Shown one piece after another: positions 598 through 58,866 of a stretch of 64,000 nt of DNA. A program made the translations under genes and the position numbers. Each line of letters opens with the position of its first letter. The stretch's first letter is position 1. Origin of the DNA: an uncultured Coriobacteriales bacterium (lineage in GTDB: Bacteria > Actinomycetota > Coriobacteriia > Coriobacteriales > QAMH01); contig CAKUES010000005.1 in assembly GCA_934646835.1 (NCBI GenBank), positions 12,860-76,859 of the forward strand, given 5' to 3'. The notes under the pieces are model-generated. The model did not search any database. It saw only the letters and a program-made list of their open reading frames with translations, and was not told the origin of the DNA.

Positions 598-619
598 GGC
601 GCCGACTTCGTCTGGCGCC
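598..619 (-). repeat. REP-like hairpin, class B (degenerate tail)
   Basis: GGCGCCGACTTCGTCTGGCGCC followed by CACA instead of TACG. Same hairpin as 8 other copies. Confidence 0.7.
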
Positions 620-817
620 CACATGGGGTTTCGCGCCCAAAGGCGCTAACGCGAAACTCGCCGCGAGCAGCAGCAAGGCAAGCAAATCATGCCACCCGAG
701 CCATTGTTGGCACCCTGCTTTTTAGCCACAAATACGTTTAAGGAAAGAAATGAACAGGGCCGCAAGTCGATGACCTGCGGCCCCTGCATATAAGTGATTT
801 CCATCTGACGGGAGCGA

Positions 818-1027
818 CTACTCATCTTCCTCATAGCGAATGATGTCTCCAGGCTGACAATCAAGCTCTTTGCAAATGGCCTCGAGCGTGGAGAACCTGA
901 TCGCCTTCACCTTCCCCGCTTTGAGGTTCGACATGTTGACTCGGCTGATGCCGACCTTCTTTGCAAGATCGGTGACCGTGATCTTTTTCATCCTCATCAA
1001 CTCATCTAGATGAACAGTGATTGCCAT
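818..1027 (-). CDS. XRE/YozG-type helix-turn-helix transcriptional regulator
   Basis: MAITVHLDELMRMKKITVTDLAKKVGISRVNMSNLKAGKVKAIRFSTLEAICKELDCQPGDII matches the short YozG-like HTH architecture. Start chosen at the internal Met (1027) of ORF 818..1060. Sits directly downstream of a DUF2975-like membrane gene, the usual pairing. Confidence 0.8.
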   Translation of the reverse strand: MAITVHLDELMRMKKITVTDLAKKVGISRVNMSNLKAGKVKAIRFSTLEAICKELDCQPGDIIRYEEDE

Positions 1028-1056
1028 ATGCGAGTCATCCCGCCCCGTGCCGTCCG

Positions 1057-1437
1057 TCAAACAATATATCTACCGACCAAAGCCAGAATCAGAGAGCAAA
1101 GATAACTGCAAATCAGCACGGAAACAAGGAGTCCCAGACCGGCAATCATAGGAAAAACTCTAAACACATATGCAAAGCCAGCACATACCGCCAAACCCAG
1201 CGCAAGGGCAATCGCATTCCCGCGCTTAGCCTGAAGCGCCCTCGAAGCCAACCATATAGAGGAAAGCGCCACAAGCAGAACAACAGCTATGCGCCACGCA
1301 CCAAAGAGGCTCATGCTGATCTCGAACCTCTGATACATAACCAGCAGATAGGGGTCAGCGAAATAAGCTGCGATCGACAGGCAAGGTATCACCAGCACCG
1401 TCAAACAATGGGACAGAGCCCCCTTCAGTTTTTCCAT
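1057..1437 (-). CDS. DUF2975-like multi-pass membrane protein, partner of the YozG-type HTH
   Basis: Four hydrophobic segments in the translation. Start at MEKLKGAL (1437), preceded by AAGGAGAG. Gene-pair context supports the call. Confidence 0.65.
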   Translation of the reverse strand: MEKLKGALSHCLTVLVIPCLSIAAYFADPYLLVMYQRFEISMSLFGAWRIAVVLLVALSSIWLASRALQAKRGNAIALALGLAVCAGFAYVFRVFPMIAGLGLLVSVLICSYLCSLILALVGRYIV

Positions 1438-1702
1438 GATGCTCTCCTTTCCCTTGGCAGCTAATCTCCAAACGTCATAAAGCAACATCTTTGCAAAACC
1501 AATGCATCATCACTGGCGCAAGTTAAGAATACTATGGAGTGTAATGATTGTCGATACATTATGTGCTTTATTCCATTAATTATTGAGCTGCGGTTGTAAC
1601 CTGGAAGATGTTAGCTGGCTCGAGTGAACTGTCACGCGACAACTGACCCTCAAACACGAAGCCCGACACGGCAAAGGTAATGTGTCTCGCCGGGGGTCTG
1701 CC

Positions 1703-1849
1703 ATCAAAAAGTACACGAAGTGTTAAGGGTTTCGGCGAACAGACGAGTAGACGGCGATTGAAGCTCGCAAAACCGCAGGTCACAGCGTTGCGACCTTGTG
1801 ACTACTCGGTATTCTGCTTTAACCCTTAACACTTCGTGCACTTTTTGAT
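1703..1849. repeat. Foldback element family F, copy 2 (core inverted relative to copy 1)
   Basis: Inverted repeats at 1703-1729 and 1823-1849 (one mismatch, GTACAC vs GTGCAC). The 93-bp core 1730-1822 is about 80 percent identical to the reverse complement of core 436-528, while the outer flanks stay collinear. Confidence 0.9.
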
Positions 1850-1891: not shown

Positions 1892-1917
1892 AGCGCCGAC
1901 TTCGTCTGGCGTCTACG
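1892..1917 (-). repeat. REP-like hairpin, class B, plus TACG
   Basis: AGCGCCGACTTCGTCTGGCGTC followed by TACG. Confidence 0.75.
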
Positions 1918-1971: not shown

Positions 1972-1997
1972 GGGGCGGAATGAACTCCGCCCCTACG
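1972..1997 (-). repeat. REP-like hairpin, class C, plus TACG
   Basis: GGGGCGGAATGAACTCCGCCCC followed by TACG. Confidence 0.8.
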
Positions 1998-2189: not shown

Positions 2190-2211
2190 GGCGTCGACTT
2201 CGTCTGACGCC
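2190..2211 (-). repeat. REP-like hairpin, class B (degenerate)
   Basis: GGCGTCGACTTCGTCTGACGCC, with a compensatory C/G to T/A change in the stem. Tail is GAGG rather than TACG. Confidence 0.6.
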
Positions 2212-2266: not shown

Positions 2267-2292
2267 GGGGCGGAATGAATTCCGCCCCTACG
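2267..2292 (-). repeat. REP-like hairpin, class C, plus TACG
   Basis: GGGGCGGAATGAATTCCGCCCC followed by TACG. Confidence 0.8.
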
Positions 2293-5134: not shown

Positions 5135-5252
5135 CTAGGGAGACACTGATTAATGCGAGGTTTATGGGGAGGGACAGGGTCCCTCCCCTACGTGACCAGC
5201 GGTTTTGCCAATCGTACGCAGCGGGCACTTGCTTTAATCAGCGTTTCCCTAG
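5135..5252 (+). mobile_element. MITE-like element (about 118 bp), copy 1, carrying a class A REP hairpin
   Basis: CTAGGGAGACACTGATTAATGCGAGG...GGGGAGGGACAGGGTCCCTCCCCTACG...GCTTTAATCAGCGTTTCCCTAG. Has terminal inverted repeats and CTAG at both ends. Four copies in the window. Confidence 0.85.
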
Positions 5253-5274
5253 GTGGGCTCCACCTGATTTCCGC

Positions 5275-5551
5275 GCGAACTGAGTGGGATCTACCGATTA
5301 CCGTGTCGAACTGGGTGATTTGCGCCTGACTCCTGCGCGAACTGGGTAGTTTTGAGTTTTGTTTTCACGAACTGGGTGGTTTTGGCAGAGCATCTCGATC
5401 TGGGCGAAAACTCGCAAGCCCCTGACCTGCGGCTTTACAGAGCAAGCTCTGAGCTTTCACTCCAAAGGACGAATCAAACCACCCAGTTCGCGAAATTAAC
5501 TTTGCAAACCACCCAGTTCGTCGCAGTTTTCGAGCACAATCGCCCAGTTCC
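5275..5551. repeat. Foldback repeat family G (CGAACTGGGTGGTT motif array)
   Basis: Four direct copies of CGAACTG(G/A)GT.. (5275-5382) face three inverted copies AACCACCCAGTTCG (5477-5551). A related element lies at 35081-35299. Confidence 0.8.
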
Positions 5552-5588
5552 CCACCTCGCAGGCGCAAGCCATCTCGCAGCAAGCTAT

Positions 5589-5614
5589 GGCGCCGACTAC
5601 GTCAGGCGCCTACG
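5589..5614 (-). repeat. REP-like hairpin, class B, plus TACG
   Basis: GGCGCCGACTACGTCAGGCGCC followed by TACG. Confidence 0.8.
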
Positions 5615-5687
5615 TGGGGTCCAGGGCTCACCGTCGCTAACGCGAGAGCGCCTCGTTCGCGGCAAGGACAGAGCGGCTCGCACCAGT

Positions 5688-5783
5688 GGCCAGTGTGCGC
5701 CAGTGACAAGATGACCAACATCGTTGAGTCGATGACATCGAGAGCGCTCTATGTTGGTCAACTTGTCACTGGCACACACTGGC
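5688..5783. repeat. Foldback element family D (GCCAGTGAC core), long form, directly downstream of metH
   Basis: GGCCAGTGTGCGCCAGTGACAAGATGACCAACAT (5688-5720) is nearly the reverse complement of 5751-5783. Confidence 0.8.
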
Positions 5784-5822
5784 CACACTGACCACTTCGA
5801 CCCCGTAACCCTGCAAACTCCC

Positions 5823-8507: not shown

Positions 8508-8623
8508 TGACATCGTGACACACATTGTGCCAGTGACATTGTGTATCACGGACAAAACGCTCGGGCATATCGCATACCTAAACCAGTGACACACAATGTC
8601 ACTGGCACAATGTGTGTCACGAC
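8508..8623. repeat. Foldback element family D: inverted pair of 35-bp units between the activation-domain gene and metH
   Basis: GTGACACACATTGTGCCAGTGACATTGTGTATCAC (8515-8549) and GTGACACACAATGTCACTGGCACAATGTGTGTCAC (8586-8620) are reverse complements with one mismatch. Confidence 0.85.
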
Positions 8624-15526: not shown

Positions 15527-15644
15527 TTAAGGAGATGCTGACCAACGCAAGGTTTATGGGGAGGGACAGGGTCCCTCCCCTACGTAGGCGGCGATTTCCG
15601 CCTTGGGCATCTGCTCGACGCGAAGAGATAGTCCCTCCCCTACG
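15527..15644 (+). repeat. Degenerate MITE/REP-A composite with a duplicated right arm
   Basis: The left half resembles the 118-bp MITE (..GATGCTGACCAACGCAAGGTTTATGGGGAGGGACAGGGTCCCTCCCCTACG). GTCCCTCCCCTACGTAGGCGG is repeated at 15571 and 15631. Confidence 0.7.
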
Positions 15645-15775
15645 TAGGCGGTGTTTTCCTAAGTTCACGGAATTGCCAAGTGTGGTTGATTTCGCGCGCG
15701 ACCAGGCGCCGTTCAGCCGCACTTAGCGCACCCGCGCCTCAGCTCGCGCCCAGCAGCCCACGCTCTTCAACAAAA

Positions 15776-18256: not shown

Positions 18257-18355
18257 GTGCAATGTGTGCCAGTGACAAAGCGACCACGCCTTGAAGAGCC
18301 GATGACACCGGAACCCTTCATGGCGTGGTCGCTTTGTCACTGGCACACATTGCAC
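18257..18355. repeat. Foldback element family D, long form
   Basis: GTGCAATGTGTGCCAGTGACAAAGCGACCACGCC (18257-18290) is the perfect reverse complement of 18322-18355. Confidence 0.85.
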
Positions 18356-22955: not shown

Positions 22956-22959
22956 CCCA

Positions 22960-22986
22960 CGTAGGGGAGGGACCCTGTCCCTTCCC
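22960..22986 (+). repeat. REP-like hairpin, class A (CGTA head on the plus strand)
   Basis: CGTAGGGGAGGGACCCTGTCCCTTCCC. Confidence 0.8.
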
Positions 22987-23050
22987 ATAGGCCTCTCATC
23001 AATCAGCGCCTCCCTGGCACCGAATCGCCACCCATCCCCACCACATGAAA

Positions 23051-23108: not shown

Positions 23109-25034
23109 TTAAGCCTGGGTTTCCTCGCCCTGAGCGGCTTCGCCCTCAGCAGACGCGCCTGCCTCGGCGGAGGCGTCGGCACCAGACTGCTGGGAAGTCG
23201 TGGAAGCGAACTCACCCTTGGAGTTCGCGATGGCCGTGACTTCGCGAACCGTGCCATTCTCGTTGTAGCGGAGCTTGATCTTGTCGCCTGCCTCGATGAA
23301 GGGCAGGTTCTCGCTCACGGTGATAGCTGCGACGTAGATGCTCTTGTCGCCCTTGAGCTTGAAGTAGTAGTAGCTGTTGCCGTCCTTGACAACGCTCTCG
23401 AGCGCCTCGATGATGCCGGAGGTCTCAGCTGCGGACGCGTTCGCAATCTCGTTAGGATCGACGTCGATGTCCTTGTCGCTGCCCAAGGCGGTCACGTAAT
23501 TGGCCTGAGCCTGCTCGACGGTAGTGCCGGTACCGACGATCTGGTACTGCTGGACGTCGATGAAGGCGTACATCTTGACCAGGCCCGCGCTGTCCTTGAG
23601 GGACAGGAAGTAAGTCGGGCGGTTGGCGATATTGAGCAGCAGCGGGCTTGTCGCCTCGTACTTCATCTGCTGGACCTGGCCCTCTGCAGAGCGCATCGCG
23701 GAGGTCTCCGTCGCACCCGCGCAGGTGTAATAGCGCGTGTCCTTGGTGCGTAGGTTGGTGAGCACGAAGCCAACCAGGGACTCGTCGGTGTTGGCAGACG
23801 TCATGCCGGTGTACATGTAGACGTCGTCGTCGATGGCGAGGTAGTTGTAGCCGCTCGTGGAGCTAGTGGAGTCACCAACGGTGGAGCCGTCACCGCTGTT
23901 GGCGAAGAGGCTCGGTGCAGCAGAGCCGGTGGGGACGAGCACGCCAGACTGGCCAATCAGGCTGTTCCAGAAGCCGCTGCGGTACTTGCCGTAGGAGCCG
24001 AGCTGCTCGTAGACGAGATCGGCGGAGAAGACCTTGTCGCACCACTGCGGGATGCTGTCGAGGTCGTAGAACTGAGACTCGCCAGTCACGGCGTTGACAA
24101 GGACGGCGCCGTCATAGTCCTTACCGCCAAAGAGCATGATGCGGTACTTGACCGTGGGGACGATCCAGTAGGGGTTGCCGTCGTCGTCGATCTCGAAGGC
24201 GGCGTCGCCGAGGATCTTGGTCGGGAACTGGAAGCGCACATGGCGGTACAGGTAGTTGTTGAAGTGCTCGGCCGTGGAGTAGTGCATGTACTGGCCCTCG
24301 GGCAGGCGGACGAGCTTGGTCTCCTGGGTGGCCATGTTGACGGAGACATAGCCGGGCAGACCGTTGCGGGTGTTGGTGATCCACTTGATGATGTCAGCGT
24401 AGACCAGAGAGCTCACGCGGTAGGGAGCCTCCTTGTAGCTGATCTGGGTGTAGGCGTTGTAGGACTCGTCGACAGCGTACTGGGAGACGAGGTCGCTCAT
24501 CTCGCCGATGGTGCGGCTGCCCAGGCGCACTGCCGTGGAGCGGTCGACGACGGGAACGCTGTCCATGGAGATCTCTGCGATGTCCTTGGAGAACTCACCG
24601 TCCTCGACGTCGAGCAGAGCAGAATAGCTCTTCGCGTTGAAGAACGGGCAGGAGATGACGTTGCCGACGACGAGCACGACAGCACACACGACGACGATGC
24701 CGCCGGCCACGAAGGCAGAACGGGCGCCGTGGCCCTTCTTCTTGCCGGCCTTCTTCTCTGCCTTGGCTGCGGCGCGCTCCTCCTTGGACTTGAAGAGCTT
24801 GCCGGACTTGAGGCGCTCGCCAAAGCTGTCGATGTGGTCCTGCAGGTCCATGAGCAGGGAGGTCACGCCGTCGCTTGCGCGCGGAATGGCAAAGAGCACC
24901 GTCACGATGATCGTGCAGTAGATTACGAACCACCAAAACGCCGTGCTCTGGACGTTGATGGCAGGGATCATCACGTAATAGAGAATCGCGATGATCACAA
25001 TGGAGAGAATTGCGGGTATACCGAACTTCTTCAT
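23109..25034 (-). CDS. Membrane-anchored protein of unknown function (three N-terminal TM segments, Lys-rich linker, large extracytoplasmic domain)
   Basis: Long ORF with coherent composition, three hydrophobic helices and a Ser/Ala/Glu-rich tail. No family recognised by eye. Confidence 0.7.
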   Translation of the reverse strand: MKKFGIPAILSIVIIAILYYVMIPAINVQSTAFWWFVIYCTIIVTVLFAIPRASDGVTSLLMDLQDHIDSFGERLKSGKLFKSKEERAAAKAEKKAGKKKGHGARSAFVAGGIVVVCAVVLVVGNVISCPFFNAKSYSALLDVEDGEFSKDIAEISMDSVPVVDRSTAVRLGSRTIGEMSDLVSQYAVDESYNAYTQISYKEAPYRVSSLVYADIIKWITNTRNGLPGYVSVNMATQETKLVRLPEGQYMHYSTAEHFNNYLYRHVRFQFPTKILGDAAFEIDDDGNPYWIVPTVKYRIMLFGGKDYDGAVLVNAVTGESQFYDLDSIPQWCDKVFSADLVYEQLGSYGKYRSGFWNSLIGQSGVLVPTGSAAPSLFANSGDGSTVGDSTSSTSGYNYLAIDDDVYMYTGMTSANTDESLVGFVLTNLRTKDTRYYTCAGATETSAMRSAEGQVQQMKYEATSPLLLNIANRPTYFLSLKDSAGLVKMYAFIDVQQYQIVGTGTTVEQAQANYVTALGSDKDIDVDPNEIANASAAETSGIIEALESVVKDGNSYYYFKLKGDKSIYVAAITVSENLPFIEAGDKIKLRYNENGTVREVTAIANSKGEFASTTSQQSGADASAEAGASAEGEAAQGEETQA

Positions 25035-25642: not shown

Positions 25643-25778
25643 TCAGTGCTGAAGATACATACCCCTCCAGTGTAACCGATGGAAAAGACGCAAAAGACAC
25701 CGTCACCCTGTTGTGCGCAAGCCGTAAGAAGACGACGGGGTGTCATTCGGGCCTACATTCAACATGGCGGACCTGCAC

Positions 25779-25889
25779 CAGCGTGACACACTTTGTGCCA
25801 GTGACATTGTGTGTCATGCCATAGAATCGCAGGATTCCCGAGTCTTCTGCATGAAACACAATGTCACTGGCACAAAGTGTGTCACGCTG
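25779..25889. repeat. Foldback element family D: 41-bp inverted repeats with a 29-bp spacer
   Basis: CAGCGTGACACACTTTGTGCCAGTGACATTGTGTGTCATGC (25779-25819) against 25849-25889, one mismatch. Confidence 0.9.
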
Positions 25890-28636: not shown

Positions 28637-28739
28637 GCAATTCTCTGAACGATTAGTCGTTCAGAGAATTGCCGAAACAGCGCCTTTTGCCCTGAAACCC
28701 GTATTGTCTGAACGATTGGTCGTTCAGACAATACGGGTT
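28637..28739. repeat. Family E hairpins (CTGAACGA-NNNN-TCGTTCAG core), two units
   Basis: GCAATTCTCTGAACGA-TTAG-TCGTTCAGAGAATTGC (28637-28672) and AACCCGTATTGTCTGAACGA-TTGG-TCGTTCAGACAATACGGGTT (28696-28739). Same family as 49861-50140. Confidence 0.9.
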
Positions 28740-28851
28740 ACGGCACCTGTCCCATTCGAGACGCGGCTTTAGCACCGCGCATCTTCAGCTTGGCTTCAGA
28801 TAGCGCGCCTATAATGCTGCCAACAGGAAACAAGAACCGAAGGCAGGCCCC

Positions 28852-34719: not shown

Positions 34720-34741
34720 AGAGGCGCGGGAGCCCGCACGG

Positions 34742-34800
34742 GTGACACACAATGTACCAGTGACGGTGACACACAATGTACCAGTGACAAAGTGTGTCAC
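34742..34800. repeat. Family D hairpin unit with a partial tandem duplication
   Basis: GTGACACACAATGTACCAGTGAC-G-GTGACACACAATGTACCAGTGACAAAGTGTGTCAC. Confidence 0.85.
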
Positions 34801-34821
34801 GCCGGCCCGCTGTTACCTAAT

Positions 34822-34847
34822 GGCGCCGACTTCGTCTGGCGCCTACG
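34822..34847 (-). repeat. REP-like hairpin, class B, plus TACG
   Basis: GGCGCCGACTTCGTCTGGCGCC followed by TACG. Confidence 0.85.
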
Positions 34848-34902
34848 TGGGGTCCGGGGCCCGCAGATGCTAACGCGAAGCTCACGGCGAGCAGCAAGGT
34901 TT

Positions 34903-34928
34903 GGGGCCGAATGAATTCGGCCCCTACG
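34903..34928 (-). repeat. REP-like hairpin, class C variant, plus TACG
   Basis: GGGGCCGAATGAATTCGGCCCC followed by TACG. Has a compensatory G:C to C:G swap relative to 2267-2288. Confidence 0.8.
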
Positions 34929-35027
34929 CATTCCAAAGCGCAAGGTTATTGGGTGTTGCTGCCTGCATTGCATAGCGATGGGGAGACATCGCGTTAGCGC
35001 CATCGAGCCACAAGGGCACGTAGGCGC

Positions 35028-35053
35028 CTGACGAAGTCGGCGCCATAGGTCGC
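35028..35053 (+). repeat. REP-like hairpin, class B (CGTA head on the plus strand)
   Basis: CGTAGGCGCCTGACGAAGTCGGCGCC. Confidence 0.85.
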
Positions 35054-35080
35054 AGCGGGATGACTGGCGCCTGCGAGGTG

Positions 35081-35299
35081 CCGGAACTGGGCGGTTCGCG
35101 CTCGAAGACGCGACGATCTGGGTGGTTTAAGGCTTTTATTTCGTGAACTGGGTGGTTTTGGCGATGCTCGGCGAGGACGCCTCCGAGTGACGGCGCTCTG
35201 ACCTGCAGTTTTACAAATCGGATTCTGACGCATCGCTTCAACGTGCGAACCAGACCACCCAGATCGCGAAATAAAAGCCTTAAACCACCCAGATCGTCG
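35081..35299. repeat. Foldback repeat family G with 33-bp perfect terminal inverted repeats
   Basis: CGACGATCTGGGTGGTTTAAGGCTTTTATTTCG (35111-35143) is the exact reverse complement of 35267-35299. Additional GAACTGGG.GGTT motifs occur at 35081 and 35142. Confidence 0.88.
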
Positions 35300-35310
35300 C
35301 GTCAGCCGAC

Positions 35311-35394
35311 CGGTCAACACTCTAGTCAGGCTGATTTGTTGACCATGCCAGGCCTGGCATGGTCAACAAATCAGCCTGACTAGAGTGTTGACCG
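35311..35394. repeat. Perfect 84-bp palindrome (42 + 42 bp, no loop)
   Basis: CGGTCAACACTCTAGTCAGGCTGATTTGTTGACCATGCCAGG followed directly by its exact reverse complement. Confidence 0.95.
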
Positions 35395-35528
35395 TGCCCC
35401 AAGACAGCGCGGCGCCCCATTCGGGACCAGCAAGTTAGAGAGCCCGTTCACGGCGAACAGCCGATGGATTCGCAAGCCCCTCCCCGGCGGCTCGGGCTGC
35501 AGGTTTACGCCATCTCGTTGCAACCCGT

Positions 35529-35554
35529 GGCGCCGACTTCGTCTGGCGCCTACG
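35529..35554 (-). repeat. REP-like hairpin, class B, plus TACG
   Basis: GGCGCCGACTTCGTCTGGCGCC followed by TACG. Confidence 0.85.
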
Positions 35555-35629: not shown

Positions 35630-36697
35630 TCAAAGCAGCTCGAGTGAGAGACCGTCGGTCTTCAGCACCGCGCCATCGCGCGTGAGGAGGACCGCCTCAA
35701 TCCCCGGCAACGCCCGCGCAAAGACCAACGCCCTGGCAGATCCGAGCGCCAGCAGGGTCGTGCTGTAGCCGTCTCCGTCGATTGAGTGCTCGCTGACGAC
35801 TGTCGCGCTGACAAGGTCCGTCTCAACCGGCAAACCCGCCAAAGGATCGAGCACATGGTGGTACACGATGCCGTCTTTCTCGAACGCACGCTCGTAAACG
35901 CCGCTCGTCACGACTGACTTGCCCCTCACCTCAACAACAGCGAAGGATCCCGAACCCTCGGCGCTGGGGCGCGGGGAGCGGATGCCGATTCTCCACGGCC
36001 TGCCCCCTTCCTTGCTCCCTAACGTCAGGATATTGCCACCCAAGTCGGTAATCGCCCGCTCAACCCCACGCGCGTGCAGCAGTTCGCCGAGTCTATCGGC
36101 GATATAACCCTTCGCTATCCCGCCCAGGTCGATCCATGCGCAGGGGTCGCCCAGCCATGCTACGTCACCGTCGACGTGAACCCTACGCCAATCGACATGC
36201 CGCAAGGCCTCGGCCAGCTCGGCTGCCTGCGGTACGCGACTCTCATGAAAGTCCCACAGCCTGCAGACAGAGCCCATGGTGATGTCGAAGCAGCCCTCGC
36301 TGCGCGCGCAATAGCCAAGCGCCTCCTCGATGAAATCCGCCAACTCCTGCGGCAGCGCCACATGGCGCCCGCAAGCATGGTTAAGCGCCCAAAGCGGTCC
36401 TTGCTCGTCAAAGCGGGAGAGCAAGCGCTCGTAATGCGTGCAAGCGGCACGGCAGGCCTCGAGCACAGAAGCATCATCCGTATCTGCCGTTATCTCGACA
36501 ACCGTGTCAAACGCCGTGAAGCAAATCGACTCCACAAGTCCCTCCCTCACTCGATGAGCCTCAAAATAACACGAGGGGCAGGACTCATGCCCCACCCCTC
36601 GCAAAACGCATTTATCGCAGACGAACCACTGCTCGATCTCCTTCTGGATGTCGTCAAGCGTAACGCTCCCGCGGTCTTCACTATGAGTTGTAGACAA
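35630..36697 (-). CDS. apbE: FAD:protein FMN transferase (ApbE family) with an N-terminal Cys-rich extension
   Basis: ApbE-like core (FDITMGSV, IDLGGIAKGY, HHVLDP, TVVSEHSIDGDGYST). There is no ATG near the 5' end, so TTG at 36697 is proposed. The upstream part of ORF 35630..36865 runs into a REP. Confidence 0.8.
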   Translation of the reverse strand: MSTTHSEDRGSVTLDDIQKEIEQWFVCDKCVLRGVGHESCPSCYFEAHRVREGLVESICFTAFDTVVEITADTDDASVLEACRAACTHYERLLSRFDEQGPLWALNHACGRHVALPQELADFIEEALGYCARSEGCFDITMGSVCRLWDFHESRVPQAAELAEALRHVDWRRVHVDGDVAWLGDPCAWIDLGGIAKGYIADRLGELLHARGVERAITDLGGNILTLGSKEGGRPWRIGIRSPRPSAEGSGSFAVVEVRGKSVVTSGVYERAFEKDGIVYHHVLDPLAGLPVETDLVSATVVSEHSIDGDGYSTTLLALGSARALVFARALPGIEAVLLTRDGAVLKTDGLSLELL

Positions 36698-36762
36698 ACT
36701 TCGCTGCGCACAATCGCCCTCAAGAGCGAGCTGTAGACACCCGCCAGCTCGACGCAACCTAT

Positions 36763-36788
36763 GGCGCCGACTGCGTCTGGCGCCTACG
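36763..36788 (-). repeat. REP-like hairpin, class B, plus TACG
   Basis: GGCGCCGACTGCGTCTGGCGCC followed by TACG. Confidence 0.85.
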
Positions 36789-36834
36789 TGAGGTCCGGGG
36801 CCCACAGATGCTGACGCGAAGCTCGCAGCGCTGG

Positions 36835-36948
36835 CGGGGAGGGGTCGGCGAAACGCCTCGCGCAACCGTCCCTCGTATAGTTGCGCGGAGCGCAGCGCAC
36901 GAGCCCGCAGGGCGAGCAGCGAAGCGGGCTTTCGCAGACCCCTCCCCG
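36835..36948. repeat. Family H composite palindrome
   Basis: CGGGGAGGGGTC (36835-36846) pairs with GACCCCTCCCCG (36937-36948). The inner GCGCAACC...GTTGCGCG.AGCG.AGCGCACGAGC is shared with 2641-2685. Confidence 0.75.
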
Positions 36949-36990
36949 ACGGCGCGGGCCACAGGTCTCTGCAGGCTCGATGCGACCTAT

Positions 36991-37016
36991 GGCGCCGACT
37001 GCGTCTGGCGCCTACG
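36991..37016 (-). repeat. REP-like hairpin, class B, plus TACG
   Basis: GGCGCCGACTGCGTCTGGCGCC followed by TACG. Confidence 0.85.
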
Positions 37017-37073
37017 TGTCCCCGCGGATCGATGATGTTGCTGCGAAAGCAGTCGAGGATTTGCGGCTGTGGG

Positions 37074-37119
37074 GCAAAGCAAAAAGGGCGAGACTTGCGT
37101 CTCGCCCTTTTTGCTTTGC
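37074..37119. terminator. Bidirectional intrinsic terminator
   Basis: GCAAAGCAAAAAGGGCGAGAC-TTGC-GTCTCGCCCTTTTTGCTTTGC. Confidence 0.85.
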
Positions 37120-37154
37120 AGATCTCGTTGAAGGGTCCGCATGTCTTTGAGGGG

Positions 37155-37330
37155 TTGGATCTCTAAGAAGAGAGAAGCCCCAGGCGCCGAAGAGGAGGGG
37201 CGCGCCTGGGGCTAACACCGTTGGTTTCCAAAGAGGAAAGGAAGAAGGAAACCGGTGTTATGAGGTGCCGGGTTGTTGAAGAGGGGACCCGGCGGTCGGG
37301 TTGTTGAAGAGAGGGGACCCGACCAAGTCA
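37155..37330 (-). ncRNA. Candidate structured sRNA with C/U-rich hairpin loops (6C-like architecture)
   Basis: The minus strand reads four consecutive hairpins: GGTCGGGT-CCCCTCTCTTCAACA-ACCCGACC; GCCGGGT-CCCCTCTTCAACA-ACCCGGC; TAACACCGGTTTCC-(CU-rich loop)-GGAAACCAACGGTGTTA; and GCCCCAGGCGC...GCGCCTGGGGC followed by TTCTCTCTTCTT. Structure only; no homology search was run. Confidence 0.4.
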
Positions 37331-37483
37331 GCTGCTTGATTTCTGACACTGAGCACTTTACGCAGAAACCCCCGGTAGAGCATCACACAAAAATGGTGAT
37401 TGCCTATTTACCCATTAACAGGCGAGCTTTTTACACCCTGATAGAGGGTAATTGGGGAGAAAACCGCCCAAAAAGGACGTGCG

Positions 37484-38232
37484 TTAATCAGCGACAGTGA
37501 TTCTGGCATGGTTGAGAAGATACTCAGACGCCACATGGCGCTCTGCAGTCTCTCGCAAAATAAACTTGCGACCCGTCTCCTCAAGAAGTTTGCGAGTCTG
37601 CGCAGAGTCCGCCTTGGGGTTGATCTGTCGCGCCGCCTCGTCAAAATCGCTCTCGTCGACCTTGAGACCCTCGTATACAAACAGCGCATCGAGCACGTAG
37701 CCCTCGACCAACTTTCCATCTCGAGCAGCACTGCGTCCCCGCTCTCGACCGCGCGATCCTGATCAGCAGCGCGCACGTACTCCGTGTTGCGCTTGGCGAT
37801 CTCCTCGATCTGGCGGTCGATGAGCGTCGTGTCCATCTCGAACTTTGGGACAGTGACCTCGACGGGATCATAGGAGGACAGCTCGTAGCGCTGCTTGGGC
37901 TGCACTTCGAGCGTGAAACTCGCTTCCTGGCCGCGGCGCAAAGCGGAGCACTCGGTCACTGCAGGCGGATAGGCCGGCATGAGGCCACTCTTGTCAATCG
38001 CATAGGGAATGAGCGCCTCGAGGGCGGAGTTGCGCACGGCGCTGTAAAGGTCCTTGATGCCAAGCTGTTCCTCGACAGCCTGGTTCACGGTCTTTCCATG
38101 CTCGGGCTTGAGGCCCATGCTGTTCACGAAAGTCAGATACGCAGTCGCGAAGGCGTCTTCGACTTCCTTTACCGTCGCTCGTGCGCTCAACGCGATCTTG
38201 CCCTAATCAAGCTTCTTCTCGGTGAGTTTCAT
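37484..38232 (-). pseudogene. Trigger-factor-like (N- and C-domain, no PPIase) gene inactivated by an in-frame TAG and a 1-nt frameshift
   Basis: The frame reads MKLTEKKLD-TAG(38205-38203)-GKIALSARATVKEVEDAF.... It breaks after ...AVLLEMES near 37712 (GAAAG run) and continues in the -1 frame as LVEGYVLDALFVYEGLKVDESDF (ORF 37484..37711). Confidence 0.75.
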
Positions 38233-38430: not shown

Positions 38431-38549
38431 CCAGGGAAATGCTGATTAATGCGAGGCTTATGGGGAGGGACTTCGGTCCCTCCCCTACGTAACCAGCGGT
38501 TTTGCTAATCGTATGCGGAAAGCATCTCCCTTAATGAGCGTTTCCCTAG
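38431..38549 (+). mobile_element. MITE-like element, copy 2 (loop variant TTCG); abuts and supplies the stop codon of the adjacent gene
   Basis: CCAGGGAAATGCTGATTAATGCGAGG...GGGGAGGGACTTCGGTCCCTCCCCTACG...CTTAATGAGCGTTTCCCTAG. The terminal CTAG contains the TAG stop of CDS 38546..40498. Confidence 0.85.
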
Positions 38550-40498: not shown

Positions 40499-40606
40499 TG
40501 ATTGCAGTCCTTCCTCTCCTCAAAAAAGACAACGCATGCATTTTAGTTCGCATGCGTTGTCTTGCCGAGCACCCAAGTTGGGTGATTTTGTGGTTATAGG
40601 GCTGCG

Positions 40607-40642
40607 TGTGACACACTTTGTGCCAGTGACATTGTGTGTCAC
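40607..40642. repeat. Family D hairpin unit (type 1: TT/TT bubble, loop GCCAGTG)
   Basis: GTGACACACTTTGTGCCAGTGACATTGTGTGTCAC. Confidence 0.85.
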
Positions 40643-40699
40643 CAAATCCGTCATTCTGAGCGTTGACCCGCAGAACAACCTTTGATTGTGTGCTGTGCT

Positions 40700-41449: not shown

Positions 41450-41580
41450 CGTAGGGGAGGGACCCTGTCCCTCCCCTTGAACCCTGCAGGTTCATAGCGG
41501 CAAAGCCCCAATACGCTACGTTGCACGATTCCCGCTGTCATCGCATGGGATATGGGGAGGGACAGGGTCCCTCCCCTACG
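41450..41580. repeat. Inverted pair of class A REP hairpins (about 131 bp unit)
   Basis: CGTAGGGGAGGGACCCTGTCCCTCCCC (41450-41476) and GGGGAGGGACAGGGTCCCTCCCCTACG (41554-41580) face each other across 77 bp. Confidence 0.9.
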
Positions 41581-42683: not shown

Positions 42684-42821
42684 CGTAGGGGAAGGACCCT
42701 GTCCCTCCCCATATGCCATGCAACAATCCGAAAGCCCACACACAAGACAAGCACGCTTCAAAACAGCATGGCTCGTTGACAACACAGCACTCCCAGGGAG
42801 GGACAGGGTCCCTCCCCTACG
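42684..42821. repeat. Inverted pair of class A REP hairpins
   Basis: CGTAGGGGAAGGACCCTGTCCCTCCCC (42684-42710) and GGGAGGGACAGGGTCCCTCCCCTACG (42796-42821). Confidence 0.9.
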
Positions 42822-45320: not shown

Positions 45321-45456
45321 CGTAGGGGAGGGACCCTGTCCCTCCCCATGAACGATGCAAAGTCAAGAGTGTCGTAAGCCCTGACGATGCCTCGCACAGT
45401 CGCAATGTAACTTAACACGCCTGTCATATGGGGAGGGACAGGGTCCCTCCCCTACG
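45321..45456. repeat. Inverted pair of class A REP hairpins
   Basis: CGTAGGGGAGGGACCCTGTCCCTCCCC (45321-45347) and GGGGAGGGACAGGGTCCCTCCCCTACG (45430-45456). Confidence 0.9.
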
Positions 45457-49718: not shown

Positions 49719-49836
49719 CTAGAGAAACGCTGATTAAAGCAAGTGCCCGCTGCGTACGATTGGCAAAACCGCTGGTCACGTAGGGGAGGGACCCTGTCCC
49801 TCCCCATAAACCTTGCATTAATCACTGTTTCCCTAG
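49719..49836 (-). mobile_element. MITE-like element, copy 3 (inverted orientation)
   Basis: CTAGAGAAACGCTGATTAAAGC...CGTAGGGGAGGGACCCTGTCCCTCCCC...GCATTAATCACTGTTTCCCTAG. Confidence 0.85.
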
Positions 49837-49860: not shown

Positions 49861-50140
49861 AATTGTCTGAACGAAATTTCGTTCAGACAATTCGTGAAAC
49901 CGCTGCCACAGGCCCTTTTCTGCGATTATCTGAACGATTTGCCATTCAGACTTTTCTCGAAATCCTCACTGTAGGCGCTTTTCTGCAATCTTCTGAATGA
50001 TTGGTCGTTCAGAAGATTGCAACCCTCGCTGCACGACCCTTCCCCAATTGCCTGAACGATATTTCGTTCAGGCAATTGGGGAAACCTCCGCCGCAAGCCC
50101 TTTTCCATAATTGTCTGAACGGATAATCATTCAGACAATC
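49861..50140. repeat. Tandem array of five family E hairpins, period about 62 bp
   Basis: Hairpins at 49861-49892, about 49924-49956 (degenerate), 49985-50020, 50042-50081 and about 50109-50140. Related linkers follow the pattern GAAAC.(G/T)C..C....GC.CTTTTC.GC. Confidence 0.9.
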
Positions 50141-50186
50141 ACAAAAGGCACCCCGCGCTTCTGCAATCCTCCCCTACTCACACCAA

Positions 50187-53691: not shown

Positions 53692-54912
<1,221 letters not shown>

Positions 54913-54988: not shown

Positions 54989-57900
54989 CTACTTCGCGCC
55001 GGTGAACGAATCCACGTCGCGGGCGTTGGAGACGTTCCTGATCGCCTGGTCGAGCTTTTGGCTCACCAGCTTGGAGACACCGTCGCTGCGCATGGACACG
55101 CCATAGAGCAGGTCTGCCATCTCCATAGTGCGGCGCTGGTGACTGATTATGATCACCTGCGTCGTGCCGCGGATGCTGTCGAGGTAGGACAGCAGGCGGC
55201 GCAGGTTGGTGTCGTCAAGCGCCGCCTCGACCTCGTCGAGGATGTAAAACGGCGTCGAGCGCACGCGGTAGACCGCAAACATCAACGCCAAACTCACCAG
55301 GCTCTGCTCGCCACCGGACAGCAGGCTTTGCTTGCGCACCGTCTTGCCGCGCGGCTGCACGTGCACCTCGACGCCTGTCGTCTCCGGGCTCTCCGGGTCC
55401 GTGAGCTCGAGATAACCCTGACCGCCGGGGAAGAGGCTTTCGACAATCTCCTGGAAGTTGCCGTTGACCTGGTTGAAGGTCTCCATGAAGCGGTTGCGCA
55501 TCTTGCGGTCGATCGCCGCGACGATACGCTCGAGCGCCTTTGCCGCGCTTTGCAGGTCGTCGACCTGGATGGCGATGAAATCGCGGCGCTCCTTGAGCTT
55601 GCGGTACTCGTCCACGGCAACGGGGTTGACGCTGCCGAGGTTCTTGATGCGGCGGCTCAGACGGTCGCGCTGCTGCTCCATCTCGCGACGGTCCTCAGGC
55701 GCGGGCAGCTCGAGCGCGATCTCGAGCAAGACACCGCTTTCCTCGGTGATCGCCTTGATTGCTTGCTCGACGCGGACCTCGAGCTTGGACTTCTCGATGC
55801 GGATCTGCACCAGGCCCTCGCTCGCCTCGTCGACCTGCCTTTGGCGCTCGGCCACCGCCTTGCGCACCAAGTCGATGGTGTTGCGCAAGTCGCCTTGGCC
55901 GGCCTGCTCGAGCTGGGCGCGGTCGCGCAGGGCCTCCGCCTTCTCCATCACAAGCTCGCGCAGCTCCGTGAGCGTGCTGTAGAGGGGCTGGACCCTCTGA
56001 CGCAAGAGCTCGAGGTTGCGCTCGGTCTGACGAGAGACCTCGAGGGACTCGTCGAGCTGGCTGATGACACGCGTGGCACTGTCTACCGTCGCGCGCAGGT
56101 GGCGCTCGCGCTCGCGGGTGCCCGCCATCTCGACTTGAAGCTGCTGGATGCGGTTCGAGAGAACCGTCTCGTCCTCGAAGAAGCGGCGGCGCTCGTCGCG
56201 CACCTTGGCGAGCTCGTCGTCGAGCTCGACCTTCTCCTTCTCGAGAGCGGCCTTCTTCTCCTCGAGCTCGCCGATGCGCTTGCGTGTGGCCTCCGTGTCG
56301 GCGGCGACCTTGGCACGTCGAGCCTCGATCTCGCCTTGCTCCTGCATGAGGCCGGCGATGCTCGACTCGAGGCGCCCGGCTTCCTCGCGCAGAGAGTCTC
56401 GCTCGCCGCTGAGCTGGGCAATCTGCTGCGAGAGCTCGAAATCGTCAGCCTGCGCAACCTGCAAGCGCTCCTGCGCTTGCGCGGCTGCGGCCTGGCACTC
56501 CTCAACGGCCTGCTCTGCCGCCGGTTGAGCATCGGCAAGCGCGTTCATGCGACGCTTGCGGGCGAGCACGCCCTCCGCATCTGCCGTGCGCTGACCGTAG
56601 CTGATCTTGCCGCTCGGCCAGACGACGACGCCCTCGCGCGTGACAAAGCGTGCGCCGGTCGTATCCGCAGCACTCGCCTCTATCGCCTGCTCGATGCTGT
56701 CGACTAGGTAGATATCGCCCAGCAGCGCATATGCCACGTGGGCGTTGGCCTCGTCGAAGTCGAGCTTGTCGATCAAGCGCTCGCCTGCCGCTGCGCGCTG
56801 GCCTTGCTGCGCCTTGCCAGACGCCGGCACGAGGGCGAGCTCGCCGCGCTCGATGTCGCTGGCGATGATGCCGTTGACCAGGCTCGCCGCGCTTGCCGCG
56901 TCCTGGACCGCAAGGCCAAAGAGGTCTCCACCCATCAGGTGCTCGACCAGTGCCTCGAGCTCGCTTGGAGCGGTGAGCACCTCGGACAGCGGAGCGACGA
57001 TACCGTCAAACTGCCCCTTGCGCTCCATCACCCAAGACAGCAGCGGGCTTGCTGCGTCGAAGGCGCGATCGACTTCCTCGAGGCCCTTGAGCTCTGCTTT
57101 GAGCTGGGAGAGCTCGTCTTGCTTGACGTTGAGCGCCTTGCGCGCGTCGTCCAAGAGGCGCACGCGCTTATCGATATCGCTTTTAGCAAGCGCAGACTCG
57201 CGCTGCAGCTTGGAGAGCTGCTCCTCGAGCTCCTCGATGCGGCTGCGTCGTGATGCGAGCGTGGCCTGCGTCGCAGAGAAGCTGTCCTCGATCTGCTGCG
57301 CACGGCGCTTGAGGAGGTCCTCCTCGACATCAGCCGTAGACAGCGACTCCGTCGCCTTGACGATGGCCAGCGTCGCCTCGTCGATCTGCTTGCCGCGGTT
57401 GCGCACCGAGCCGTTGAGGCGGCCGATCTCGCTGTCGAGCTGCTTGCGCTCCTTGCGCGTCTCCTCCATCTTGGAGCGGACCTCGTCGACCTGCGCGGTG
57501 ACGGCCTCGAGCGACGCCGCGGCCTCGACCTGCTCGACACTCGATTTCTCGAGCGCCTCGCGGTTCTCGACCAGGCGCTTCTCGTTTTGGTGGATGCTCT
57601 GGCGCAGCTCCGACAGGCGGGTCACCATGTTGTGGCCCTTCTCCTCCAAGAGCAGCATGCCCGCATCGAGCTGGGAGAGCACCATCTGGCAGCGGCGGCG
57701 CTGCTCGGCCAAATCGCCGGCGAACAGGCCCTTCTCCTCGAGAAGGTGTTGGAGCTTCTCAAGCTCGCGCTGCTTTTCCTCCAGGCGGAAGCGCACCAGC
57801 TCGACAGAGGCATCCGCCTCGCGCTCGCGGCGCTCGATGTCGTTCCATGCACCCTGAAGCTGGCGCAAATCGTCCACGGCGAGCGTGAGCTCGATCTCCT

Positions 57901-58567
57901 TGAGCTCACCGGAGAGCAGCTCGTACTGGCGAGCGCGGCTCGCCTGGCGCTCGAGAGGCTTGAGCTGGCGGTCGATCTCTGCAGCGATGTCGTTCACACG
58001 CGCGAGCTCGACATCCATGTTCTTGAGCTTGCGACCAGCGCGCTCTTTGCGCTTCTTGTGCTTGAGGATGCCCGCAGCCTCCTCGATAAGGACGCGGCGG
58101 TCCTCGGGGCGGGCCTGGAGCAGGGACTGCAGGGAGCCCTGCGAGATGATGGAATGCGTGTCGCGGCCCAAGCCGGAGTCGTTGAGGACATCAAGGATGT
58201 CCATAAGGCGGCTGGGGCTGCCGTTGATGAGGTACTCGCTGTCACCGCTGCGGTACATGCGGCGCGTGATGACGACCTCCGTGAAGTCGAGCGGGAGCGT
58301 GCCATCGGAGTTGTCGAGCACGAGGTCGACCTCCGCGAGGCTCACTGCCTGGCGCGCGGAGCTGCCGGCAAAGATGACATCCTCCATCGCCTGACCGCGC
58401 AGCTGCTTGGCGCTTTGCTCGCCCAGTACCCACAGGACCGCGTCGCTCACGTTGGACTTGCCACTGCCGTTGGGGCCCACGACGACGGTCATCCCCGGCT
58501 CGAGCTTGAGCACGGAGCGATCGGCGAAGGATTTGAAGCCCTTGAGGACTAGTGATTTGAGGTACAC
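54989..58567 (-). CDS. smc: Chromosome segregation protein SMC
   Basis: VYLKSLVLKGFKSF, GPNGSGKSN, long coiled coils, hinge, LSGGEQSL, and Walker B ILDEVEAALD. GTG start at 58567. Confidence 0.95.
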   Translation of the reverse strand: MYLKSLVLKGFKSFADRSVLKLEPGMTVVVGPNGSGKSNVSDAVLWVLGEQSAKQLRGQAMEDVIFAGSSARQAVSLAEVDLVLDNSDGTLPLDFTEVVITRRMYRSGDSEYLINGSPSRLMDILDVLNDSGLGRDTHSIISQGSLQSLLQARPEDRRVLIEEAAGILKHKKRKERAGRKLKNMDVELARVNDIAAEIDRQLKPLERQASRARQYELLSGELKEIELTLAVDDLRQLQGAWNDIERREREADASVELVRFRLEEKQRELEKLQHLLEEKGLFAGDLAEQRRRCQMVLSQLDAGMLLLEEKGHNMVTRLSELRQSIHQNEKRLVENREALEKSSVEQVEAAASLEAVTAQVDEVRSKMEETRKERKQLDSEIGRLNGSVRNRGKQIDEATLAIVKATESLSTADVEEDLLKRRAQQIEDSFSATQATLASRRSRIEELEEQLSKLQRESALAKSDIDKRVRLLDDARKALNVKQDELSQLKAELKGLEEVDRAFDAASPLLSWVMERKGQFDGIVAPLSEVLTAPSELEALVEHLMGGDLFGLAVQDAASAASLVNGIIASDIERGELALVPASGKAQQGQRAAAGERLIDKLDFDEANAHVAYALLGDIYLVDSIEQAIEASAADTTGARFVTREGVVVWPSGKISYGQRTADAEGVLARKRRMNALADAQPAAEQAVEECQAAAAQAQERLQVAQADDFELSQQIAQLSGERDSLREEAGRLESSIAGLMQEQGEIEARRAKVAADTEATRKRIGELEEKKAALEKEKVELDDELAKVRDERRRFFEDETVLSNRIQQLQVEMAGTRERERHLRATVDSATRVISQLDESLEVSRQTERNLELLRQRVQPLYSTLTELRELVMEKAEALRDRAQLEQAGQGDLRNTIDLVRKAVAERQRQVDEASEGLVQIRIEKSKLEVRVEQAIKAITEESGVLLEIALELPAPEDRREMEQQRDRLSRRIKNLGSVNPVAVDEYRKLKERRDFIAIQVDDLQSAAKALERIVAAIDRKMRNRFMETFNQVNGNFQEIVESLFPGGQGYLELTDPESPETTGVEVHVQPRGKTVRKQSLLSGGEQSLVSLALMFAVYRVRSTPFYILDEVEAALDDTNLRRLLSYLDSIRGTTQVIIISHQRRTMEMADLLYGVSMRSDGVSKLVSQKLDQAIRNVSNARDVDSFTGAK

Positions 58568-58699
58568 GCGAATCCTTTTGCTCGCAGGTGGGCACAACTG
58601 ATTGATTTTAGCATGACGACGATGCGCCGATGGCAGGGATGGCCAGCAAGGCGGCGCAGGCCTGCATGGTACGGTTGACGAACCATCGCCTCACTGTCG

Positions 58700-58738
58700 C
58701 GGTCAACACTTCCGTCAGACTGTTTTGTTGACCACGCC
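58700..58738. repeat. Single-arm relative of the 84-bp palindrome
   Basis: CGGTCAACACTTCCGTCAGACTGTTTTGTTGACCACGCC resembles one arm of 35311-35394. Confidence 0.6.
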
Positions 58739-58747
58739 GCGACTACT

Positions 58748-58866
58748 CTAGGGAAACGCCGAGCAATGCGAGGTTTATGGGGAGGGACAGGGTCCCTCCC
58801 CTACGTAACCAGCGGTTTTGCTAATTGCAGATATTGGGTATCTGCTTTAACCGGCGTTTCCCCATG
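58748..58866 (+). mobile_element. MITE-like element, copy 4 (right end degenerate)
   Basis: CTAGGGAAACGCCGAGCAATGCGAGG...GGGGAGGGACAGGGTCCCTCCCCTACG...CTTTAACCGGCGTTTCCCCATG. Confidence 0.8.

Follow-up and report, generated by a model that had tools for sequence, protein, structure and literature searches.

The 64,000-nt stretch of contig CAKUES010000005.1 analyzed here (hereafter, the window) carries 25 copies of short, GC-rich hairpins that fall into three classes (A, 13 copies; B, 9; C, 3), nearly all of which abut one and the same tetranucleotide, TACG. We give roughly even odds (a probability of about 0.5) to the reading that the three classes form a single superfamily of the repetitive extragenic palindrome (REP) or bacterial interspersed mosaic element (BIME) type, spread by an HUH Y1 enzyme that is specific for hairpin and tag and is encoded elsewhere. 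The unit of the superfamily is a GC-rich hairpin of 9 to 10 bp with a fixed head, 5'-(Y)(W)CGTA-G...hairpin, which on the other strand reads hairpin+TACG(W)(R). Judged by their sequences, the elements fit the structural definition of GTAG-tagged REPs: they combine a tag at the foot, a GC-rich and near-perfect palindrome, an extragenic location, inverted dimers, mosaic clusters, and several families that share one tag.

Three hairpin classes share one foot tetranucleotide

A preliminary description of this DNA had located the three classes by eye; a pattern search recovered all of them at the places it listed and returned 0 matches for each class in dinucleotide-preserving shuffles. Class A is GGGGAGGGAC-AGG-GTCCCTCCCC (its count of 13 includes a TTCG-loop variant at 38462), class B is GGCGCCGAC-TTC-GTC-T-GGCGCC, with a single bulged T, and class C is GGGGCGGAAT-GA-ATTCCGCCCC. 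With stems of 9 to 10 bp and loops of 2 to 4 nt, all three are short GC-rich palindromes of the kind found in GTAG-tagged REPs. The copies, including partial forms and the longer elements in which some are embedded, are as follows.

598-619 (+): class B hairpin, perfect; CACA replaces TACG in all strains
1892-1917 (+): class B hairpin with a degenerate stem base, plus TACG; in a tandemly duplicated B-C unit
1972-1997 (+): class C hairpin plus TACG; an A-C mismatch here is G-C in strain L022
2096-2122 (+): class A hairpin plus TACG, with the long-form left arm from about 2065
2190-2211 (+): class B hairpin with the compensated pair GGCGTC/GACGCC; a 3-nt deletion removed the tag, which strain L022 retains along with a T.G intermediate
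2267-2292 (+): class C hairpin plus TACG
5135-5252 (+): class A full 118-nt long form (terminal inverted repeat element), flanked by CTAG; hairpin plus TACG at 5166-5192
5589-5614 (+): class B hairpin plus TACG
15528-15614 (+): class A truncated long form; hairpin plus TACG at 15558-15584
15631-15659 (+): partial copy with the 3' arm of hairpin A, TACG, and flank, starting exactly at the boundary of loop and 3' arm
22958-23016 (-): class A truncated long form that ends at the tag; CGTA plus hairpin at 22960-22986, with one A-C mismatch
34822-34847 (+): class B hairpin plus TACG; tails-inward inverted pair with 35019-35044
34903-34928 (+): class C hairpin plus TACG, with the compensated pair GGGGCCGAAT/ATTCGGCCCC
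35019-35044 (-): class B, reversed, CGTA plus hairpin
35529-35554 (+): class B hairpin plus TACG
36763-36788 (+): class B hairpin plus TACG
36991-37016 (+): class B hairpin plus TACG; likeness to other class B copies stops shortly past TACGTG
38432-38549 (+): class A full long form with loop TTCG; hairpin plus TACG at 38462-38489
41450-41580 (both strands): class A inverted dimer 1, tags outward, 41450-41476 (-) and 41554-41580 (+)
42684-42821 (both strands): class A inverted dimer 2, tags outward, 42684-42710 (-) and 42795-42821 (+)
45321-45456 (both strands): class A inverted dimer 3, tags outward, 45321-45347 (-) and 45430-45456 (+)
49719-49836 (-): class A full long form; CGTA plus hairpin at 49779-49805
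58748-58864 (+): class A full long form; hairpin plus TACG at 58779-58805

TACG lies directly 3' of the hairpin in every copy of class A (13/13) and class C (3/3) and in 7 of the 9 copies of class B. The common flank that had been proposed, with a GTAG head on the other strand, was thus borne out in 23 of the 25 copies. Read on the opposite strand, these are CGTA + G, a frequency (92%) above the 90% set for a GT[AG]G foot in GTAG REPs, with the caveat that the final G of GTAG is able to pair as the first base of the stem. Across classes, the conserved flank consists of T at -1 (22/25), TACG at +1 to +4, and then W-R; the other-strand form, (Y)(W)CGTA-G-hairpin, amounts to a GTAG head with one extra conserved C. 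The tag was kept in copies whose other flanks are unrelated.

Two class B entries of the preliminary description needed amendment. The copy at 598, called degenerate there, is so in its tag (CACA) and has a perfect hairpin stem. The copy at 2190, also listed as degenerate, has indeed lost its tag; it is the one of the two untagged copies that has TACG in another strain. A reversed copy does exist near 35028, at true coordinates 35019-35044.

The tetranucleotide itself is scarce: counts over the window are 126 for TACG and 153 for CGTA, where equal frequencies would give 250 each, and 23 of these 279 sites lie at the foot of a hairpin. No family of short GC-rich hairpins other than A, B, and C is repeated in the window, where the remaining repeated palindromes are long, more AT-rich, and untagged. 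If the classes were independent, the probability that all three have one flank would be about (2/256)^2; the copies are not independent events, several having arisen by tandem or segmental duplication or belonging to a single mobile family. Beyond the right end of the window, in 9 kb of flank, one more class B copy with TACG was found (L020:6103), and no further hairpin copy was present in the 7 kb to its left.

Stem pairing is under selection

The preliminary description had taken the stems of the three classes to be unrelated. Their relatedness becomes visible by covariation when all copies, strain variants included, are aligned in one structural register. G-C pairs are nearly invariant at stem positions 1, 2, and 4 (26 to 27 of 28), positions 3, 5, 6, 8, and 10 each show at least two Watson-Crick pair types that divide by class with few mismatches, and an apical GAC/GTC is common to classes A and B. 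The covariation check that the same description had called for, run here on the window copies together with strain variants, found five covarying positions, and the three pair-preserving variants that it had listed are all correct.

Compensatory changes were also caught midway between strains. At the class B copy at 2190, the consensus C-G is T.G in strain L022 and T-A in the window; at the class C copy at 1972, the consensus A-T is A-C in the window and G-C in L022. Because these changes were found in passage from one pair to another, stem pairing is under selection, and on a population time scale.

Most class A copies end sharply at the tag, and six form inverted dimers

Class A also occurs as a 118-nt long form, described below, and a profile of that form was compared with all class A copies. 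In 9 of 13, the match extends only to profile positions 58 to 60, right after TACG, and the opposite end is ragged, with matches starting anywhere at positions 1 to 33. Six short copies, in the hairpin-TACG reading, retain 12 to 19 nt of the left arm of the long form 5' of the hairpin. The copy at 2096 is like the long form as far as TACG and from there on has a right flank (TACGAAGGGTCC...) similar to that of class B, making this copy an apparent A/B chimera joined at the tag. The sharp edge and the chimera may be read from their sequences as indirect hints of tag-dependent cleavage or strand transfer.

The six short copies make up three inverted dimers with tags outward, spacers of 77 to 84 nt, and a period of 100 to 107 nt (about 105 nt). 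Their middles are not homologous to one another, and no target-site duplications were found around any of the three. As single-stranded DNA, each dimer is predicted to fold into one long hairpin with a stem of 27 to 30 bp (z-scores, -6.7 to -10.9). For the exact insertion boundaries of the dimers, the corresponding spacers of related species proved too diverged to align. Dimer 3 (45321-45456) lies between the stop codon of an ABC gene and a terminator-like site.

Part of class A travels in an element that inserts at CTAG, and classes B and C have been duplicated locally

Miniature inverted-repeat transposable elements (MITEs) of IS5-like and other DDE families, such as Correia-type elements, are known to insert at CTAG or TA. 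The class A long form behaves as a MITE, inserting at CTAG or TA, because it has terminal inverted repeats (TIRs), flanking CTAG, an empty site in a sister species, and a shared CTAG between adjoining copies. Four full elements were found (5135-5252, 38432-38549, 49719-49836, and 58748-58864), with TIRs of 16 to 19 nt (GGGAAACGCTGATTAA...) and CTAG (or YTAR) on either side. Inside, hairpin A and its TACG are separated by a 20-nt spacer from CGTA, after which comes a second hairpin that is weak and variable (in the right arm of the element at 58748-58864, GCAGATA-TTGGG-TATCTGC). The terminal CTAG of the element at 38432-38549 provides the TAG stop codon of an oxidoreductase gene; in the sister species (L026) the same gene ends in the same ATCTAG (ATCTAG|G), and the element is absent. 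In another contig (L003), two long-form copies adjoin, with a single CTAG in common. Long forms at 85 to 90% identity were also found in short contigs of another metagenome, of lower G+C (53 to 59%) and with remaining sequence unlike the window. TIRs, a target-site duplication, and an empty site occur together in the 118-nt long form only; short class A units, class B, and class C do not show them. The hairpin and TACG are invariant among long-form copies and the terminal repeats are just about 80% alike, which is the opposite of what is expected of a purely TIR-driven element.

Classes B and C appear in mosaics. A class C hairpin follows class B by about 55 nt at 1892/1972, 2190/2267, and 34822/34903, and the first two of these B-C units constitute a 295-nt tandem duplication. 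The class B copy at 34822 and the reversed copy at 35019-35044 make an inverted pair whose arms, about 75 nt long, enclose a class C hairpin. Copies are clustered at 1892-2292 and 34822-35554. The B/B inverted pair aside, no TIRs were found around class B units, and no extended RNA fold around class B was supported beyond the hairpin itself. Local duplication, which adds further copies, and the spread of the CTAG-targeting MITE are both demonstrated secondary routes.

It might then be asked whether nothing more than ordinary MITEs and local duplication is at work, with the hairpins as passengers of TIR elements moved by a DDE transposase, the short forms as decayed remnants, and TACG as the inheritance of one ancestral module. 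We regard this as rather unlikely as a full account. It draws on the TIRs of the long form with CTAG or YTAR on both sides, on the empty ATCTAG of the sister species exactly at the element position, on the one CTAG common to two adjoining copies, on the occurrence of the long form in unrelated contigs of other metagenomes, on the 12 to 19 nt of left arm that the short class A forms still match, and on the tandem and segmental duplication of B and C. Yet the internal hairpin and TACG have stayed invariant while the TIRs, which a DDE transposase needs, diverged by about 20%; nine class A copies end sharply at TACG, which is not expected of random decay; the dimers have neither TIRs nor target duplications; class B units lack TIRs around them; and the compensatory changes speak of selection on pairing itself.

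Copies occupy 3' spacers and were gained or amplified in one gut lineage

The preliminary description had placed the DNA in an actinobacterial host. Protein homologues agree and point to an uncultured gut member of the Coriobacteriia, order Eggerthellales: window proteins were found exactly on dozens of human-gut metagenome contigs, named members of their 90% protein clusters are Eggerthellales, Eggerthellaceae, and Coriobacteriales bacterium metagenome-assembled genomes (MAGs), and more distant named homologues belong to Raoultibacter, Adlercreutzia, and Eggerthellaceae. Contigs that carry window proteins reach 171 kb in NCBI and ENA, the species is present in many gut metagenomes (Hadza and other ENA assemblies), and a related cluster member is MDD6289147.1 (Eggerthellales bacterium).

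All 25 copies are intergenic, as judged from a gene map based on G+C at third codon positions (GC3), the called genes of matching contigs, and Pfam. They were found only in convergent or tandem spacers, with 0 in divergent ones, and this spacer preference, together with three head-to-head (HH) dimers, one tail-to-tail (TT) pair, and clusters, corresponds to what is described for GTAG REPs. Orientation is balanced for class A (7:6) and skewed for B and C together, where the G-rich strand has the CGTAG-first form by 11:1, in a sample that is small and consists partly of duplicates. The elements at 38432-38549 and 45321-45456 are probably transcribed as 3' untranslated regions (UTRs), because they sit between a stop codon and a terminator-like hairpin.

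Seven genomes of the host species, at about 99% identity, keep every copy across a 21-kb stretch, and the sampled strains showed no polymorphism at the level of doublets. Indels among strains affected only other repeats, namely 69 bp of another palindrome and a terminator hairpin of 50 bp. In contrast, neither A, B, or C copies nor GC-rich intergenic hairpins with a TACG foot were found in related genomes (L026, L024/L025, L014, and L016-L019), of which L026 is a sister species with the same gene order and 80 to 90% nucleotide identity in genes. The ROK-NanE spacer measures 236 bp in the window versus 10 bp in L026, 29 bp in L024, 80 bp in L025, 86 bp in L014, and 35 bp in L016/L017; the ApbE-amidohydrolase spacer measures 910 bp versus 299 bp in relatives. 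Since relatives with the same gene order have no copies and far shorter spacers, the hairpin family was gained or amplified in the lineage of this species.

Scanning genome contigs (one genome per species) for the class A hairpin returned a single match, which has TACA in place of the tag and comes from another Coriobacteriaceae MAG, and scanning metagenome contigs returned six. Five of these six carry the hairpin no more than about 260 nt from a contig end and two end at the hairpin, which fits the expectation for a high-copy repeat. No matches to A+TACG or B+TACG were found in viral contigs. Among the metagenome matches, L007, and probably L005, were set aside as chance or unrelated high-GC matches that lack the tag.

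The placement of the copies also bears on the possibility, to our minds improbable, that they are structural elements with no dedicated transposase, selected by the host for stabilizing 3' UTR RNA, for assisting terminators, or for offering a host protein its sites on DNA, and that they spread via recombination and duplication. This would account for the location of copies only 3' of genes, the probable transcription of the two elements between stop codon and terminator-like hairpin, the keeping of pairing via G.T intermediates, and the invariance of the hairpin sequence among diverged copies. However, the hairpins have no U-tract, and separate terminator-like hairpins are present; class A is equal in both orientations, a misfit for a strand-specific RNA role; neither an Rfam match nor an extended conserved RNA fold was found; close relatives with the same genes manage without the hairpins; and the contigs from other metagenomes break at the repeat in the manner of high-copy mobile repeats. 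As to a third explanation, that the common flank is an artefact of chance or of composition, a mechanical scan of perfect and near-perfect hairpins by distinct stem family did find TACG on 4 families and other tetranucleotides on up to 5, and the data nonetheless reject it, given a shuffle expectation of zero for every class, a TACG that is under-represented in the window yet found on 23/25 copies, and a tag retained where the other flanks are unrelated.

Comparison with known REP systems

REPs and the domesticated transposases associated with them (REP-associated tyrosine transposases, RAYTs) are known mainly from Proteobacteria. The REP of Stenotrophomonas maltophilia consists of GTAG, an 8-bp perfect stem, and a 3-nt loop and is cleaved by its RAYT in a reaction that needs the tag (PMC8266576); the design of class A is very close to it. 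RAYTs of Escherichia coli, S. maltophilia, and Marinomonas bind single-stranded REPs, require GTAG, and cut at a nearby dinucleotide (PMC8266576). GTAG REPs typically form tags-outward dimers 20 to 100 bp apart in convergent or unidirectional spacers (PMC3733652). Like the group 3 GTAG REPs of S. maltophilia (SMAG, GTAG-6 to -9) and Pseudomonas, the window elements have a tag at the 5' foot, a GC-rich, near-perfect stem of 8 to 10 bp, and a loop of 2 to 4 nt (PMC3733652, PMC8266576, PMC2817692). They also share with that group the presence of several stem families per genome with one tag, complementary stem variants, an extragenic location, the preference for convergent or unidirectional spacers, tags-outward (HH) dimers 20 to 100 bp apart, and mosaic clusters. 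Unlike that group, they reside in a Coriobacteriia host, their head is one base longer (CGTAG), the T directly 3' of the hairpin (in the CGTAG-first reading) is also conserved, the family is partly embedded in a TIR MITE, and no RAYT is present in the roughly 80 kb that were read.

The arrangement of the dimers corresponds to the HH dimers of Di Nocera et al. as well as to the REPIN (REP doublet forming a hairpin) geometry of Bertels and Rainey. Like the REPINs of Pseudomonas fluorescens and E. coli, the three inverted doublets have a constant period of about 105 nt, highly conserved REP cores with a poorly conserved middle, and a predicted long single-stranded hairpin; unlike them, the doublets number only three and the halves of their spacers are hardly complementary (PMC5581495, PMC8049555).

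Other systems resemble the elements in part. The class A long form is like the CTAG/TA MITEs in its TIRs, its CTAG on both sides, and the empty CTAG site in a sister species, and unlike them in that its most conserved part is the internal tagged hairpin and that B, C, and short A units have no TIRs. IS200/IS605 ends and their miniature derivatives, the palindrome-associated transposable elements (PATEs), offer hairpins (recognized there as single strands), a specific junction tetranucleotide, no target duplication, and a strand bias relative to replication. Unlike IS608, where cleavage occurs 10 to 19 nt from the hairpin foot, the conserved tetranucleotide of the window abuts the foot, and unlike IS200/IS605 in general, there is no tnpA or tnpB nearby and the dimer arms are inverted rather than same-oriented. 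CGTC-tagged REPs share the first three tag bases (CGT) and a predominance of HH dimers (PMC3733652). An identity with these was ruled out by the CGTA tag, a stem that starts with G-C, and the absence of a CCA tail: CGTC REPs have stems that start with A-T pairs (positions 1 to 2), loops of 4 to 5 nt, and CCA tails, none of which hold in the window (PMC3733652). The CGTAG head and the hybrid with a TIR MITE go beyond textbook REPs.

A survey of GTAG and CGTC REPs in more than 80 species of 8 phyla, with its supplements, mentions no Actinobacteria (PMC3733652). Our literature search returned no report of REPs, REPINs, or RAYTs in Coriobacteriia, and searches for Actinobacteria, Collinsella, and Eggerthellaceae were likewise without a relevant report.

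A proposed mechanism and the evidence on either side of it

In the mechanism that we propose for a REP/BIME-type superfamily, the folded single-stranded hairpin with its CGTAG foot would be the substrate of an HUH Y1 nuclease or transposase encoded elsewhere, with a RAYT-like or IS200-type protein as candidate. We infer recognition of a folded single strand with this foot, and cutting and joining at the foot, from one combination of features: the constrained hairpin, the foot tetranucleotide that stays invariant across covarying classes, the sharp boundary located there, the exchange of modules at this boundary, the doublets that have no target duplications, and the confinement to 3' spacers. 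HUH Y1 enzymes act in this manner. Such an enzyme would cut and rejoin DNA at the tag during replication, which would copy units into new spacers and would sometimes unite modules of different classes. Part of class A is also carried in the 118-nt CTAG-inserting MITE, and local duplication adds copies.

A more specific version is possible, and we put it forward tentatively: that this is a working actinomycetotal REP/REPIN system, in which an HUH enzyme, either a horizontally acquired RAYT or a re-purposed IS200-type TnpA, cuts exactly at the tag to copy and recombine CGTAG hairpins whose three stem classes co-evolve, and has seeded both REPIN-like doublets and an interspecies TIR MITE that carries the hairpin.

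Several observations weigh against a tag-specific enzyme as the agent of spread. No Y1/HUH or other transposase gene was found in the window or in about 17 kb of its flanks (about 80 kb in all). For the window this agrees with the preliminary description, which had seen no candidate gene there: none emerged when about 45 window ORFs (open reading frames) were checked with Pfam or NCBIfam, all family-matched ORFs being housekeeping and a few having no match at all. A phylogenomic survey of Actinobacteridae reported IS200-type Y1 proteins only and no RAYT-like classes (PMC6006769). The G of the window GTAG can pair, and the tag of the published families is described as unpaired. Of the class A copies, 7 of 13 lie within the TIR element (4 full and 3 truncated, at 2096, 15558, and 22964), and CTAG insertion, which probably depends on a DDE transposase, accounts for the spread of these seven without any Y1 enzyme. 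Most class B copies are alike for about 50 nt beyond TACG, and much of the class B flank is therefore common descent. No presence/absence polymorphism of a hairpin unit was detected (across 21 kb in 6 strains, and at the ends of the window in 2+2 strains), so that recent mobility of the units is something we only infer. Single-nucleotide polymorphism density, at 3/268 hairpin sites versus 61/3,385 other spacer sites, is not distinguishable between the two at such small counts.

Since seven class A copies, four full and three truncated, belong to a 118-nt element that inserts at CTAG, the spread of the tagged hairpins is not purely REP-like. The preliminary description of the repeats as REP-like elements accordingly stands for their structure and falls short for their spread, where the TIR element and local duplication account for some of the copies.

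Searches for other families around the elements were also negative. No small Y1-like gene was found among the ORFs of the short metagenome contigs and L001. Rfam gave no matches in the window at gathering thresholds, the hairpins fitting no Rfam family, and at E<=1 returned only spurious matches of miRNA models to other long palindromes. The window contains no tRNA genes.

Other repeats and neighboring genes

The window is rich in further repeats. A second MITE-like family of about 140 nt with TIRs AAAAAGTGCACGAAGTGTTAAGGG occupies 412-553 and about 1705-1847; each of these copies is followed by a class B unit, in a duplicated block of about 146 nt. The sister species L026 has a relative, with the TIR AAAAAGTGCGCCAAGTAGGCAGG, at about 2050-2200. 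An internal motif, TGACCWGCGGTTTTGC, is common to the two unrelated MITE families and a third palindromic block, at 5193-5208, 476-491, about 1769-1790 (-), 5424-5440, 38491-38506, and 58808-58823, and could be a protein-binding or promoter module.

Long, AT-richer palindromes (GTGACACACTTTGTGCCAGTGACATTGTGTGTCAC) are located at 8510-8621, 25778-25886, 34737-34801, 40603-40643, and 60817-60857 (also 5685-5787 and 18263-18349). They are the source of the weak miRNA-model matches, and one copy is polymorphic between strains by the 69-bp indel, at about 40642. The palindrome ATTGTCTGAACG-N4-CGTTCAGACAAT recurs with a period of about 63 nt at 28640-28744 (2 units) and 49862-50151 (5 units); these arrays, which resemble those of operators or iterons, are situated upstream of a gene for a response regulator and between the opp-like genes for a binding protein and a permease. 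At 35311-35394, amid class B and C copies, lies a perfect 84-nt palindrome with 41-bp arms (CGGTCAACACTCTAGTCAGGCTGATTTGTTGACC...), and a related half-copy adjoins the class A copy at 58779 (about 58690-58740). Directly upstream of the class B copy at 5589 is a palindromic block of about 280 nt (5262-5560) built of CGAACTGGGTGGTTT repeats, four direct and three inverted, with a central TGACCTGCGGCTTTAC; the motif CCCAGTTC also precedes the class B copy at 35019-35044.

Strain L011 lacks, by a precise deletion between short direct repeats, the terminator-like hairpin with a 21-bp stem (GCAAAGCAAAAAGGGCGAGAC...) at 37064-37114. In a lower-GC relative (L018, 1183-1207), a hairpin CCCCTCCGCC-CCCAC-GGCGGAGGGG follows TGCAACCT, the same left flank as that of class B (TGCAACCTAT), and has no TACG; it may be a distant relative of class B or a chance likeness. 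A trigger-factor homologue at 37408-38190 (-) encodes about 260 amino acids, the N-terminal domain only, where the gene of L026 encodes 432; about 550 nt are missing internally, and two class B copies lie in the downstream spacer (36514-37407). A 641-amino-acid ORF at 23109-25034 (-) has strong coding GC3 and no Pfam or NCBIfam match, and adjoins the class A copy at 22964.

Implications

A dense family of tagged and covarying hairpins in a common gut lineage of the Coriobacteriia would extend the REP paradigm to a new phylum and offers a natural setting in which to test whether a GTAG-type tag is always accompanied by a RAYT. For these organisms it accounts for breaks in metagenome assemblies and supplies species-specific markers. 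The compensations between strains, together with the sharp recombination edge at TACG, make it a usable system for the study of repeat evolution.

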